Numbered from the stretch's first letter, positions 20,312 through 24,277 are shown. The stretch is DNA of 56,702 nucleotides from Candidatus Thorarchaeota archaeon (GCA_048882485.1 JBHLRP010000020.1:1-56702); one strand, 5' to 3'. Numbers and translations are program-made. Notes: generated by a model not told the origin, from the sequence alone.

Positions 20312-20399
20312 GCGGAGGTTGCCAAGCCTGGCCAAAGGCGCTAGGTTGAGGGCCTAGTTCAGTAGTGATTCGCGAGTTCAAATCTCGCCCTCCGCACCA
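20312..20399 (+). tRNA. tRNA-Leu(GAG)
   Basis: GCGGAGG/CCTCCGC acceptor, CTAGG-TTGAGGG-CCTAG, long variable arm, encoded CCA. Confidence 0.96.
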
Positions 20400-20417
20400 C
20401 TTTGCTATTCGATCAAT

Positions 20418-20816
20418 TCAGCCGTATACTGTATAATAGTGGGTTAATTCAATGTGGGTTACTTCATCCATTCTTGCTAAGCTGAATATCTGGTCTGCTG
20501 TACGAAATGACTGAAAACTTGGAGAATACGGAGAAATGTCTCCTACAAACTCTTCGCCAATTGTATCGATGACTGCATGCATGTCGTCCCTCGTTTTGCA
20601 TGTTACTGTACAATCATATGGATAGTTTCTCCATCCAGCCTCTATGCTCTCTATCAGAAACGCTTCCAACTTGTCTCTTACGTCGTCTGGAACGGACACT
20701 CTGGGATTAAATCCGGTAAGTCCCAAGTATATGAACGAAAAGGGCACTATTGAAAGCAATAATAATGCAACAACTAGCTCCCTCCTATCTCTATTCACTC
20801 GCCGTACCCCACACAC
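20418..20816 (-). CDS. Hypothetical N-terminally membrane-anchored protein (cassette 1)
   Basis: Hydrophobic helix then soluble domain; fills the space between tRNA 3' repeats 1 and 2. Confidence 0.65.
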   Translation of the reverse strand: MCGVRRVNRDRRELVVALLLLSIVPFSFIYLGLTGFNPRVSVPDDVRDKLEAFLIESIEAGWRNYPYDCTVTCKTRDDMHAVIDTIGEEFVGDISPYSPSFQSFRTADQIFSLARMDEVTHIELTHYYTVYG

Positions 20817-20875
20817 ACAATATTGGTCCGAGGGCTTATCATTTTTACCTCAATATTCGTTTGAGCTATGAAGAC

Positions 20876-20898
20876 TCAAATCTCGCCCTCCGCACCAC
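20876..20898 (+). repeat. Direct repeat of the tRNA-Leu 3' end (att-like copy 2)
   Basis: TCAAATCTCGCCCTCCGCACCAC identical to 20378..20400. Confidence 0.95.
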
Positions 20899-20929
20899 CT
20901 TCTTCTTGATTCATTGAAATAGATTATTA

Positions 20930-21157
20930 CTATTCTTTGTCATCAATTCCAGGTAGACGACCCCCATAAAACCTGCCCATGCCCATGCCTTTAACCGCTC
21001 CCAAGTTTGAAGCTTGTGGTGCCGTATCTGAATACCTCGCTTGTGCAGAAGGAACACTAGTTTGCGAAGACTTGTTCCTTCTATCTTCTGGATGAAGCAA
21101 GAGAATGAGTGCGATAATGACTACACCAGCGATAAGCCCAGTAAACCACAGATTCAA
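20930..21157 (-). CDS. Small single-TM hypothetical protein (cassette 2)
   Basis: N-terminal TM LWFTGLIAGVVIIALILLL; lies between repeats 2 and 3. Confidence 0.6.
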   Translation of the reverse strand: MNLWFTGLIAGVVIIALILLLHPEDRRNKSSQTSVPSAQARYSDTAPQASNLGAVKGMGMGRFYGGRLPGIDDKE

Positions 21158-21220
21158 CTCAGTTAGCTTCCGTATTGATTTTGGTTTGAGTTGAGATAAA
21201 CATTACCACGAACGAGATAT

Positions 21221-21247
21221 TTCAAATCTCGCCCTCCGCACCACTTT
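21221..21247 (+). repeat. Direct repeat of the tRNA-Leu 3' end (att-like copy 3)
   Basis: TTCAAATCTCGCCCTCCGCACCACTTT identical to 20377..20403. Confidence 0.95.
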
Positions 21248-21322
21248 TCCTGTTCTCTTTGAGGACTAGCTATCTTCTTATTATCGGAGTCAAACCGGAG
21301 TGTGTTTGACGGGTGACTTCAT

Positions 21323-21826
21323 TTGAATGAAGGGAATCACAAATTCAATGACAAACTTGTAATGACATATGCTCAATACTTCAAGGCAATGACAAGCCGG
21401 GCTGTGAGCATAATCAGGGCATTTGAATCCGCCTTTGGAAGGGAAGATGTCCATCGAGTTCTCAAGGATTGGTCAGAGAACGCGGCGCGTAAAATGGCCC
21501 CGGACTCAATAGCTGATTTTCAGAAGTTCAAAAACTACTGGAAGACTACATTAGAGTCTGAGAATTGGTCAAAGATTCTGACATGCGAGTTTCTTGAAGA
21601 GTCCAATAAGAAGCTGGCGTGCAAGTATTACGAATGCCTATGGGCGGAAACAATGAAGGATATGAATACTGAAGATATTGGTTACATTCTATTTTGCCAC
21701 CCAGATTTTGAAATGGTAAAAGCAATACATCCGAATCTAAGATTGGAGCGATCTCGTACGCTTATGGAAGGGGATGAATTCTGCGATCACACATTCTATT
21801 GGGATGAGAAACCAACACCTGATTAG
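21323..21826 (+). CDS. L-2-amino-thiazoline-4-carboxylate hydrolase-like (ATC hydrolase/V4R-like) protein
   Basis: ECLWAE...CHPD...RTLMEGDEFCDH. Confidence 0.8.
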   Translation: MNEGNHKFNDKLVMTYAQYFKAMTSRAVSIIRAFESAFGREDVHRVLKDWSENAARKMAPDSIADFQKFKNYWKTTLESENWSKILTCEFLEESNKKLACKYYECLWAETMKDMNTEDIGYILFCHPDFEMVKAIHPNLRLERSRTLMEGDEFCDHTFYWDEKPTPD

Positions 21827-21878
21827 TGGCTGTGTGCTTCTATTGCACCCTGCGAACCATCTGCATCTAGGTGAGTTT

Positions 21879-22418
21879 TTACCTCACAAGCAGGATTGCG
21901 TATCTATTCATTGTCTGATCATAGTCAGATAGGACTTCTATCGGATAACCTACAGCCCTCGCAGTTGAAAAGACATCCACACCCATTGCTTCTGGTGGAG
22001 GTCTGGAGAGCCTCTTCTGCTTGCAGTCTTCTCTAGCACTGACACATTCATCGCACAATGAGCAGTTGTCTGCAGGGAGAATGAAAGCCTTGACTTCTCC
22101 AGAAAGAAACACCTCTCGCTCTAGCTTGAGAAGCTTCAGGTTTATTTCCTTCATTATTTCATGACGATCATCAGGATTGTCAAGTTCTATAGATAGGTGA
22201 AACAAAGCAATGTCATTATATTCGTCAAATAGCTCCCTGCACTCGGATACTGATGGCGTGTTAGGAGGGCATGCAGCGCATTGCCCATAGCTGGAGCATC
22301 CCCATGTGCATTTCATACGCACCCATTGGGAAACAACGACTTCCTTGGGATCAATCCATTTGTAGTCATCGAATCCATGTTTCATAAACAGAGTTTCAAG
22401 ATCTTTCAGACTGCTCAT
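21879..22418 (-). CDS. DUF2284-like Cys-rich metal-binding protein
   Basis: VRMKCTWGCSSYGQCAACPP, CSLCDEC, RPPPEAMGVDV. Confidence 0.85.
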   Translation of the reverse strand: MSSLKDLETLFMKHGFDDYKWIDPKEVVVSQWVRMKCTWGCSSYGQCAACPPNTPSVSECRELFDEYNDIALFHLSIELDNPDDRHEIMKEINLKLLKLEREVFLSGEVKAFILPADNCSLCDECVSAREDCKQKRLSRPPPEAMGVDVFSTARAVGYPIEVLSDYDQTMNRYAILLVR

Positions 22419-22543
22419 AGTCTATCATCTTTATGCAAATATTAGCTTGTTTTTAGATTTGCCTCTGAACGTAATCTTCGCTTTCTAGATTCCATGGGAC
22501 TTTTCAGAAGGAATAGTCTGGTAGCAGACAAGAGGCTGATACA

Positions 22544-22864
22544 ATGAGTCTGCATGATCAATTCAAAGAAGAGATGCGGGAGGTCTGCACTGAATATCAC
22601 AACTTGCTCCGACAAAAAGAGGCTCTTGAAGCCCAACTAGAGACGCTTCATGATTACATAGAAGCCACTATGAAGAAATACAGGCAGAATGAATACGATG
22701 AACCAGAAGTGCCTGTGAAGGTTGACAGAATCGAGTATATGACCGAGCGTATGAAGAGAGGTGGCAAGAAGAAGCTCAGGGAGATTCTGACAGAGAAGCA
22801 GTGGTCCGAAATTTATACAGAGAAGAAGGTTGTGAGCTATCGAATAACTCAGCGTGAAGAATGA
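22544..22864 (+). CDS. Hypothetical coiled-coil protein, possibly phage Gam/Gp157-like
   Basis: 106-aa ORF with SD GAGGCTGA; heptad helix then beta-rich tail. Confidence 0.65.
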   Translation: MSLHDQFKEEMREVCTEYHNLLRQKEALEAQLETLHDYIEATMKKYRQNEYDEPEVPVKVDRIEYMTERMKRGGKKKLREILTEKQWSEIYTEKKVVSYRITQREE

Positions 22865-23075
22865 GCCCCTTGTTTTGGACCCACCCACCACGGGGAGGCA
22901 AACCGCATGTTCAGGGTGGGTCCTTTGAGGGAGTTGTCGTCAGGAGCGTGATAGGGGGTTCCGAAGACAAAGGAACTCTCGCGCTTGGCGGGTCCGGATT
23001 GTCAAGGTGGGGAGCAAGAGAGGGCATAGGGACTCGGACTTTTAGAGAGGGCCAAGGGAACCCCCAGAGAGTCTT
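22865..23075 (+). ncRNA. Candidate structured G-rich RNA element
   Basis: Perfect 10-bp stem 22877..22886/22914..22923; long G-U-containing hairpin 22938..22990; stem 22992..23039. Confidence 0.4.
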
Positions 23076-23272
23076 GCACACTACTTACAATCATGAATCC
23101 TGTTGTGGAGATATAAGGCTGTAATGTGACTTGGTGACATTCAAGAATATGATAATTGCGAAAAATTCGTCAAAATGAAGTGGTTTTGAACGAGTAGCAC
23201 ATTCCACAGGGAAGAGGAATCTATAAAGGAGAACCAGTTTTTGATGAAATCAAACAGCAGGAGTGGTCAGCC

Positions 23273-24277
23273 ACGACAAATCCAAAGATAGGAATCATTG
23301 GTACAGGCAACATGGGAAGGATTCATGCCCGGGTTCTGAGTAACATTCGAGCTCTCACAGCCGTGGCTGATACCGATGTGAAGCAGGCTGAAGAAGTGGC
23401 CCAGATGTATAACGTAGAATCGTTTAACGACTTTGAGTCATTGATTGAGCACGCGGAGTTAGATGGCGTAATCATTTCCACTCCAACTGCAACACATGCC
23501 GAAATAGCTGAGAGTGTTGCCAAGAAACAGGATGGAATAAGGGGCATTCTGATTGAGAAACCGTTGGCGAGCAACCTCAAGGATGCCCGCAAGCTTGCTG
23601 AAGTCTTAAGGAAGAAGGATATCACTGTCCTAGTTGGACACTCTGAGATTTACAACCCTGTAGTTGAACGGGCATTAAACCTGATCAAAGAAGGCGCCAT
23701 TGGAGTCCCTCAGACGGTGATCCATGATAGGCGCGGATTTGTCCAGGCAGAAAGATTGTCATCTCTAGGAGACGTGTTTGAAGATATTGGGGTTCATGAT
23801 TTTGACATCATGACTCGGATAAGCAGTGGTAACGCCACTCTCTATGCTCAATGCCAGACCAAGAATGAGATTCTGAACACGGGAAATGTGACGGTGAAGT
23901 TTGAAAACGAGGCGCAACACATCTTCCATTTGTCAAGGCAATATGTGGGCAGGAAAAGGAGCATGGATGTTTCTGGAACAAAAGGAACCTTGAACCTTGA
24001 CCTCTTTGGACAGGTCATTAAGGTTCAAGACCTCGATCAAGCGCCTCTGGCTGACAGCAGGACGATTCAGCTAATAGAACGTGGTGCTACAATCAAAGTG
24101 TATGGAGAACCTATTCTACAGGTGATAACTGACTTCCTACACTGCATAGAAACAGGTAGCTCACCTAAGGTTGATTTGGATGATGGGATTTTAGCCCTCG
24201 AAGTGGTTGAAGCAGCGAGAAGGAGTGCAATCTCAGGGAAGGTTGTTAATATCAATATTCAGTCTCGACACATCTGA
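23273..24277 (+). CDS. Gfo/Idh/MocA-family oxidoreductase (probable ACG start)
   Basis: KIGIIGTGNMG Rossmann motif begins upstream of ATG 23312; EKP and DIGVHD motifs. Confidence 0.88.
   Translation, partial: TTNPKIGIIGTGNMGRIHARVLSNIRALTAVADTDVKQAEEVAQMYNVESFNDFESLIEHAELDGVIISTPTATHAEIAESVAKKQDGIRGILIEKPLASNLKDARKLAEVLRKKDITVLVGHSEIYNPVVERALNLIKEGAIGVPQTVIHDRRGFVQAERLSSLGDVFEDIGVHDFDIMTRISSGNATLYAQCQTKNEILNTGNVTVKFENEAQHIFHLSRQYVGRKRSMDVSGTKGTLNLDLFGQVIKVQDLDQAPLADSRTIQLIERGATIKVYGEPILQVITDFLHCIETGSSPKVDLDDGILALEVVEAARRSAISGKVVNINIQSRHI

Follow-up and report, generated by a model that had tools for sequence, protein, structure and literature searches.

A conserved G-rich element in Candidatus Thorarchaeota is the predicted antisense image of a structured small RNA

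The window analyzed here is a 56,702-nt stretch of DNA from Candidatus Thorarchaeota archaeon (GCA_048882485.1 JBHLRP010000020.1:1-56702). Within it lies a G-rich element that a first-pass annotation had described as a compositionally distinct, multi-hairpin stretch at 22865-23075. The compositional claim was borne out: the GC content of positions 22850-23074 is 0.58-0.59 and that of the flanks is 0.35-0.47 (overall contrast 0.59 vs. ~0.44). The sequences named as pairing partners are also present, namely the 10-bp stem formed by GGACCCACCC (22877-22886) and GGGTGGGTCC (22914-22923), GGGGGTTCC (22954-22962) with its alternative partner GGAACCCCC (23057-23065), and a third stem formed by GTCCGG (22992-22997) and TCGGAC (23034-23039). 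A TATA-like sequence, CGAAATTTATA, does occur at 22807-22817 as described, but it lies inside an ORF that exists only in genomes G000 and G005. The element is present in a single copy in the window's genome, an archaeal metagenome-assembled genome (MAG). Folding of the single window sequence relative to shuffled sequences was not significant (z = −0.85 for the plus strand and −1.38 for the minus strand); therefore, the single sequence proves nothing. The features of the locus, as delimited by the comparisons presented below, are as follows.

22544-22864, plus strand: 106-aa ORF with weak coiled-coil-type Pfam matches (TCO89, RasGAP_C)
22855-23088, minus strand: proposed small RNA gene of ~215-235 nt, delimited by conservation edges and TATA spacing, with no Rfam match
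22877-22923, minus strand: P1, the 3′ terminal hairpin, in which a one-sided internal loop separates the 10-bp outer stem from the inner stem and the apical loop contains GCCUC
22924-22944, minus strand: C/U-rich linker CCUGACGACAACUCCCUCAAA, kept in alignments A3 and A4 and unpaired in the minus-strand fold
23082-23077 and 22950-22945, minus strand: tentative closing helix H5 (AGUGUG/CACGCU), found in the minus-strand minimum free energy (MFE) fold
23065-23057 and 22962-22954, minus strand: helix Ha (GGGGGUUCC/GGAACCCCC), which closes the large 5′ domain and is 100% paired in five close species
23053-23045 and 22980-22972, minus strand: helix Hb, with a CUCUC/GAGAG core and comparative changes
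23039-23035 and 22996-22992, minus strand: helix Hc (GUCCG/CGGAC), the third stem above, with a G-C to A-U change in G009
23034-22997, minus strand: C/U-rich apical loop of 38 nt enclosed by Hc, CCCUAUGCCCUCUCUUGCUCCCCACC, in g1 (the window's genus)
23111-23122, minus strand: predicted promoter, a conserved motif made up of a BRE-like ACAG (23122-23119) and the TATA box CCTTATAT (23118-23111)
23221-23229, plus strand: TATA-like CTATAAAGG, the likely promoter of the dehydrogenase gene
23221-24277, plus strand: GFO/IDH/MocA dehydrogenase gene, the divergent partner, identified by Pfam and NCBIfam (frame open from 23198, stop at 24277)
23273, plus strand: ACG of the likely dehydrogenase start region, GGAGTG-N7-ACG

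Four congeners carry the element with 89-98% identity. Alignment with them revealed a sharp left edge of conservation at approximately 22873; on the right, conservation extended beyond the edge set by the first-pass annotation, through GA(G/A)ATATAAGG at 23108-23118. That edge was too short: the conserved RNA continues to approximately 23088 and its promoter to 23122. Two ORFs are open across the element in the window, one of 87 aa on the plus strand (22861-23124) and one of 56 aa on the minus strand (22911-23081), and a protein-coding reading would rest on them. A 2-nt indel near 22971 in G011, G002, and G009 shifts both frames, and the 87-aa ORF is thereby broken in three of the four congeners; we therefore conclude that the region is not coding. 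The ORF had no Pfam match, the substitutions are paired rather than codon-like, and the length of the 5′ domain ranges from ~40 to 150 nt between genera. The probability that the region encodes a conserved protein is negligible.

The distribution of the element was determined by pattern and covariance-model searches. The pattern GGACCCACCN{20,50}GGTGGGTCC matched 37 of the 87 genomes of the order, in three genera, and the reversed control matched none. Matches to this pattern in high-GC bacteria of a species-wide collection look like chance palindromes, judging by their taxa alone. Covariance model R1, which was built from the linker and hairpin, was positive in five genera of the window's family (Candidatus Thorarchaeota), with the RNA detected in 47 of 86 genomes; among 124 genomes that represent 26 other families of the phylum, it had 0 matches. 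At 10 extra loci fetched after the R1 search (9 of them in new genomes, and including weak matches with E values of 1e-4 to 7e-4), the dehydrogenase gene adjoins the RNA, and this adjacency is a model-independent check of the R1 matches. The region upstream of the dehydrogenase orthologue was then inspected in ten R1-negative genomes. Diverged P1 hairpins were found in four of them (G046, G048, G017, and G016), and in two (G015 and G013) the dehydrogenase locus runs out at a contig edge. G004 and G006 have kept a g1-type 5′ domain, with P1 absent and tRNA-Leu 55 nt away. G042 and G093 have no RNA; tRNA-Leu lies directly before the dehydrogenase promoter, and the same proximal promoter is kept. 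As far as these searches extend, the predicted RNA family is confined to one family of Thorarchaeota (Asgard archaea).

Searches of Rfam 15 (4227 families) with the whole window at gathering thresholds returned three tRNAs and nothing else. A scan of positions 22500-23400 at E ≤ 10 gave no match in the element on either strand; three matches with E values of ~8 all lay at or to the left of 22812 and were to eukaryotic models. The element had been judged by eye to be neither RNase P nor SRP RNA, and that judgment held. The archaeal RNase P RNA model (RF00373) had no match in 22500-23400 at E ≤ 10, and this genome's copy is on contig C110 (162.7 bits); the archaeal SRP RNA model (RF01857) likewise had no match in the region and has a candidate on contig C58. 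The SRP RNA candidate (C58:5972-6282, minus strand) scored 90.3 bits relative to a Rfam gathering score of 96.5, and it would therefore be missed by standard annotation. Several other class assignments were tried and rejected. The resemblance of AAAGUCCGAG to RNase P CR-I is absent in the G010/G012/G007 subclade. A reading as an H/ACA guide RNA does not suit P1, in which the internal loop is one-sided (6-9 vs. 0-3 nt) and has no tandem G·A by eye; an ACA 5-7 nt after the P1 stem is found only in part of genus g5 and is absent in g1, g5c, and g7. The C/D and K-turn readings were rejected by eye. In the literature on Thorarchaeota and Asgard noncoding RNAs, no description of this RNA was found, nor did Rfam or the literature yield any structured RNA specific to a family of Asgard archaea, aside from the universal RNAs. 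These results support the earlier suggestion of an undescribed structured noncoding RNA. The RNA would represent a new family of a familiar kind, the lineage-specific archaeal small RNA (sRNA), and in our view the element is likely to be a stand-alone noncoding RNA gene.

Base pairing in P1 was counted in 44 sequences realigned to R1 (covariance-model alignment A4). P1 was paired in 94.1% of 730 cells, and none of 500 shuffles reached the observed values; when the partner was moved by 1-3 columns as a control, at most 50.5% of the cells were paired. Both sides change at 13 of the 18 pairs. The outer stem had 432 Watson-Crick cells, 8 minus-strand G·U cells, and 0 unpaired cells, with 5 pairs changing on both sides; in the inner stem all 8 of 8 pairs change on both sides. 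The outer-stem sequence is identical in 37 genomes belonging to three genera, and its covariation is found in the divergent members G003, G016, G022, G092, G099, and G088. GCCUC is present in nearly every P1 apical loop. P1 is thus a conserved structure supported by covariation, and the 3′ module of the predicted RNA is solid.

The linker that precedes P1 in the RNA has the C/U-rich core ACAACUCCCUC(CCUC). In genus g5 the linker sequence is ACAACUCCCUCCCUC; the G010/G012/G007 subclade has ACACCUCCC, with CACCUCC in the linker. At two loci, L220 and L221 (in G004 and G006, a subclade of the window's genus), which lie ~55-300 nt after tRNA-Leu, the RNA promoter and 5′ domain have been kept and a small hairpin, CUCUUC...GAAGAG, stands in place of the absent P1. 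Transcription of the minus strand in these two genomes would run into the antisense of tRNA-Leu.

The 5′ domain is less uniform than P1. RNAalifold, run on both strands of MAFFT alignments of subgroups, recovered a few helices in addition to P1, and its energies were biased by G content. In the window's genus the domain is predicted to form a long irregular hairpin. When the G000 clade, G009, and the G010/G012/G007 clade are compared, compensatory changes are seen in each of helices Ha, Hb, and Hc. The counterpart of Ha in G010/G012/G007 has compensatory changes and, in G012, one minus-strand G·U. In Hb a C-G pair becomes U-A, and in G009 the helix gains a minus-strand G·U and reaches 9 bp; its counterpart in G010/G012/G007 differs by two compensatory changes and contains four minus-strand wobbles. 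The loop enclosed by Hc is invariant in sequence in the five close species and is largely kept in G010/G012/G007 and in G004/G006. The tentative closing helix H5, in which one pair becomes a minus-strand G·U in G009, competes with an AGCG/CGCU pairing inside the domain, and that pairing covaries.

The first-pass annotation had proposed a conformational switch in which GGGGGTTCC exchanges a local partner, within a 53-nt hairpin, for the distal partner GGAACCCCC. In the five closest species, 96.7% of the cells of the local hairpin are paired, and the counts from these species do not separate the two partners; the more distant congeners decide for the distal one. G009 breaks 4 cells of the local hairpin, and by eye it has no counterpart in G010/G012/G007. 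The proposed switch is therefore not conserved, and only the distal partner is both conserved and covarying.

A different long-range pairing was noticed in the main type of g5 (for example, L049:1493-1699), where the predicted 5′ end of the RNA, AAUCCAAGA, can pair with an internal UCUUGGAU. This pairing, across a GGGACUC/GAGUCCC helix, would be a possible H-type pseudoknot in g5. Both sequences are invariant in the main g5 group, and L029 has two uncompensated changes.

Because Watson-Crick pairs look alike on both strands, whereas a G·U pair on one strand is an A·C mismatch on the other, the wobble pairs provide information about which strand is read. G-U pairs had previously been taken to favor a plus-strand RNA; the comparative data reversed that conclusion. 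In the ungapped P1 outer stem, a minus-strand reading gives 8 G·U and 0 A·C among the non-Watson-Crick cells. The inner stem has 33 minus-strand and 7 plus-strand wobbles, a ratio that may be inflated because A4 was fitted to a minus-strand model; the 8:0 count is unaffected by that fitting. The total for P1 is 41 minus-strand vs. 7 plus-strand wobbles. Position 10 of P1 illustrates the asymmetry, with C-G changing to U·G and then to U-A on the minus strand; on the plus strand the intermediate is a C·A mismatch. Likewise, in G003, G018/G098/G097, G054 (tandem), G057, G046, and G017 the plus-strand mismatches are minus-strand wobbles. In Ha and Hb the internal wobbles are on the minus strand only, and A·C is confined to helix ends. 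A few pairs favor the plus strand, in L035 and L047 (P1 inner stem) and in L037 (a hairpin of the 5′ domain).

Folding energies led to the same conclusion once composition was controlled. Raw energies were lower on the G-rich plus strand, as expected from composition alone. Relative to dinucleotide shuffles, the mean z of the whole RNA was −2.39 for the minus strand and −1.73 for the plus strand, with the minus strand better in 28 of 37 sequences, and the MFE of P1 was better on the minus strand in 26 of 37. Two strand-neutral counts were set aside. In strand-neutral folding of the whole RNA there were 365 plus-strand and 149 minus-strand G·U pairs; the plus strand is G/T-rich and a ratio of ~2:1 is expected by chance, so this composition-biased count was discarded. 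Strand-neutral folding of P1 alone gave 57 A·C vs. 24 G·U, from a routine that over-pairs. Taken together, the wobble asymmetry, the z-scores, and the orientation of the promoter described next indicate that the RNA is very likely read from the minus strand, in place of the plus-strand RNA first proposed. The G-rich stretch would then be the antisense image of a conserved, C/U-rich, structured small RNA.

The conserved ATATAAG at the right end of the element reads, on the minus strand, as ACAG followed by CCTTATAT. A motif of the form A(T/A)(A/T)TAAG was kept in every homologue inspected except for two tRNA-flanked loci without the RNA. Its arrangement is similar in form to the promoters of four other RNA genes of the same genome: those for RNase P RNA (CAG followed by CTTTTTATG), SRP RNA (ACG followed by TTTTTAGG, ~23 nt from the start), tRNA-Leu (ACAG followed by CTTTAAG), and tRNA-Thr (AAC followed by TTTTATAA). 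The predicted start of the RNA is at 23086-23088, 23 nt downstream of the TATA box, a spacing in the ~23-27 nt range expected of a stand-alone archaeal noncoding RNA gene; throughout the family ~22-23 poorly conserved nucleotides separate the box from the first conserved residues of the RNA. A private BRE/TATA promoter for the RNA at 23122-23111 is therefore strongly supported as a prediction. The 3′ end would fall between 22876 and ~22855. Runs of T (T4-T8) follow P1 on the minus strand in most of the g5 and g7 members compared, with few exceptions. The window's genus, g1, has no T-run after P1 and hence an uncertain 3′ end; pyrimidine-rich stretches such as AUUCUUCA are found there, and similar stretches follow the RNase P, SRP, and tRNA genes of this genome. 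A scan for bacterial-type promoters and terminators is not applicable to archaea and was uninformative.

These results also bear on the possibility that the element functions as a G-rich plus-strand RNA, either as a leader or riboswitch of the dehydrogenase gene or as a 3′ UTR switch that toggles the partners of GGGGGTTCC. On that strand the element and the dehydrogenase gene would be read in one direction, the two are strictly linked, and both the raw folding energies and the pairing of the local hairpin in the closest species agree with such a reading. However, the wobbles in P1, in its outer stem, and in Ha and Hb, together with the composition-controlled z-scores, are those of the opposite strand, and two conserved TATA-like boxes (in g5 also a T-run) lie between the element and the gene, on which grounds the leader was rejected. 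There is no plus-strand TATA box at a workable distance from P1, and genes upstream on that strand stop 11-40 nt short of P1. Different species have unrelated left flanks, the local hairpin lacks a counterpart in G010/G012/G007, and G042 and G093 have the dehydrogenase gene with the same proximal promoter and no element. We regard a plus-strand RNA as quite improbable.

The genes on the two sides of the element behave differently. To the right, on the plus strand, a GFO/IDH/MocA oxidoreductase of ~320-375 aa is present at 36 of the 37 pattern loci, the other (L033) being cut by the contig end. To the left, the neighbor differs in identity and orientation from locus to locus. Because the right neighbor is constant and the left variable, the element belongs with the dehydrogenase gene and not with the 106-aa ORF with which it had been provisionally partnered. 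Among the species compared, that ORF is found only in G000 and G005, which also argues against a 3′ UTR switch of the ORF, and the DNA to the left of the element is unrelated in the other three congeners, which do not have it. The description of the ORF as phage-like is unsupported, since it had no PHROG or NCBIfam match.

The TATA-like CTATAAAGG is the box nearer the dehydrogenase gene and its likely promoter; thus the RNA and dehydrogenase genes would be divergent. That the RNA gene stands head-to-head with the dehydrogenase gene, and that both stay together as a module while the other flank changes, is strongly supported by the locus comparisons. The two genes are not obligately coupled, since G004 and G006 have the dehydrogenase gene with no P1 and G042 and G093 have it with no RNA. 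The dehydrogenase best resembles the archaeal UDP-GlcNAc 3-dehydrogenase and inositol 2-dehydrogenase models, scoring below the cut-offs of both. In G072 there are two RNA-plus-dehydrogenase modules (L170, on G072:C209, and L035, on G072:C127), explained either by genuine duplication or by the binning of two strains into one genome (contamination 7%).

The start of the dehydrogenase gene is unusual. In the region 23195-23335 (plus strand), no in-frame ATG, GTG, or TTG is present from the stop at 23195 to the ATG after the GxGxxG motif. The sequence GGAGTG-N7-ACG is kept in seven of the eight g1 species whose sequences were compared and in several g5 species. At the position of the ACG codon, g7 and part of g5 have ATG or GTG. 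Where g5 species have ACG, several also have a TTG or ATG within a few codons of it; L031, L042, L047, and L051 lack any such codon upstream. Shortly before the ACG, a TGG found in other species is TGA in three. This pattern suggests noncanonical (ACG) initiation, or rapid turnover of the start codon, in the dehydrogenase gene.

In several relatives, a tRNA-Leu gene immediately precedes the dehydrogenase promoter or adjoins the RNA on its left side (L213, L214, L215, L220, and L221). In the window, 2.5 kb separate tRNA-Leu(GAG) from the RNA, and this interval (20312-22870) holds DUF2284, an ATC-hydrolase-like ORF, and the 106-aa ORF; the arrangement fits insertions at tRNA-Leu. An element acting as DNA, such as an inverted-repeat binding site for a protein or an attachment or recombination site at a tRNA-Leu integration hot spot, could account for the adjoining tRNA-Leu in several genomes, for the variable left flank expected at an integration site, and for inverted-repeat arms of invariant sequence in many genomes. 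It would not account for strand-specific G·U pairs, covariation of the inner stem 27-37 nt across, and kept loop motifs, all of which are signs of selection on RNA folding, or for a properly spaced promoter. We give this explanation a very slim chance.

With moderate confidence, we propose that the locus (22855-23088) encodes an independently transcribed, structured, minus-strand small RNA that represents a new RNA family in Thorarchaeota and acts in trans as a riboregulator. The unpaired parts of the predicted structure are C/U-rich: the linker, the P1 loop with its GCCUC, and, in g1, the 38-nt apical loop. The exposed CCUC/CUCC tracts would pair with purine-rich, Shine-Dalgarno-like sites on target mRNAs and thereby block initiation of translation; P1 would protect the 3′ end, bind a protein, or both; and control DNA common to both genes would couple the regulation of the RNA to that of the dehydrogenase. 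The tracts resemble what we take to be the anti-Shine-Dalgarno core of 16S rRNA, CCUCC; the comparison draws on general knowledge because no clear match to the 3′ end of 16S rRNA was found when this assembly was searched. Duplexes between the RNA and the translation-initiation region of the dehydrogenase mRNA were at the shuffled background (mean z −0.5, with 2 of 36 below −2); therefore, any target would lie elsewhere. Pairing of the anti-Shine-Dalgarno type, which is proposed by analogy, is offered only as a tentative mechanism.

The near invariance of the P1 stem across genera exceeds the need of a mere 3′ hairpin and hints at recognition by a protein rather than simple base pairing. The same minus-strand RNA might thus be a protein-binding RNA (a scaffold, a sponge, or a component of an RNP) instead of one that pairs with mRNAs, with the P1 stem and GCCUC loop as the recognition site and the C-rich tracts bound by a poly(C)/KH-type or Sm-like protein. 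The outer stem is invariant in so many genomes even though the divergent members demonstrate that it can covary, and the persistence of GCCUC, the background level of complementarity to the neighboring mRNA, and a U-rich 3′ tail in g5 and g7, which suits Sm-like proteins, all point the same way. Against it, the locus has no linked gene that is a candidate for such a protein, the 5′ domain persists in G004 and G006 although they lack P1, and a conserved stem sequence can likewise result from recent common ancestry. We consider a protein-binding role unlikely, although less so than a third reading, in which the RNA displays several CCUCC-like motifs as a decoy or competitor for Shine-Dalgarno sites and so tunes the initiation of many mRNAs; that reading is improbable. 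If it were true, the module, with its ACG-starting dehydrogenase, would link an RNA to start-site selection in a lineage near the root of the eukaryotes.

The trans-acting riboregulator that we favor belongs to a well-delimited family, with ~50 genomic instances, a core supported by covariation, a predicted promoter, and a strand assignment, which is ready for a Rfam-style seed. The correction of the strand matters in practice, since a target search or probing on the G-rich strand would address the wrong molecule, and the link to a sugar dehydrogenase with an odd start codon provides a physiological handle.

Hgc-type RNAs are GC-rich structured archaeal RNA genes that were found by composition. 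The Thorarchaeota RNA gene resembles them, and the RNase P and SRP RNA genes, in forming a GC-rich island (0.59 vs. ~0.44), and its BRE/TATA promoter is of the same form as those of this genome's RNase P and SRP RNA genes. It is distinct from the RNase P and SRP RNAs, whose genes lie on other contigs, and has no match among the 4227 Rfam families.

In bacteria, SgrS-sgrR and OxyS-oxyR are divergently transcribed pairs of an sRNA and a neighboring gene. The present module is similar in that the predicted sRNA lies head-to-head with a kept partner across a short control region and is inherited, and in G072 duplicated, together with it; here, however, the partner is an enzyme rather than a transcription factor, and co-regulation is inferred. 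RsaE/RoxS of the Firmicutes are bacterial sRNAs whose C-rich seed motifs base-pair with Shine-Dalgarno sequences. The RNA shares with them repeated unpaired C-rich motifs (UCCC/CCUC) in loops and linkers and, in most genera, a terminal hairpin followed by U residues. It differs from them in belonging to another domain of life with other transcription and termination machinery, in being approximately twice as long with a large variable 5′ domain, and in having no homology to them.

The closest parallels may be two intergenic sRNAs of the archaeon Methanosarcina mazei, sRNA41 and sRNA154, which act by masking ribosome-binding sites (PMC5867862). The Thorarchaeota RNA has no sequence or structural homology to these sRNAs, and it is distinguished from them by the unusual invariance of P1 and by its strict link to one neighboring gene. 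It is like them in being a stand-alone intergenic gene that is restricted to one lineage and has its own (here predicted) promoter, and in having several stem-loops and exposed single strands complementary to purine-rich ribosome-binding sites, a complementarity read here from sequence alone.
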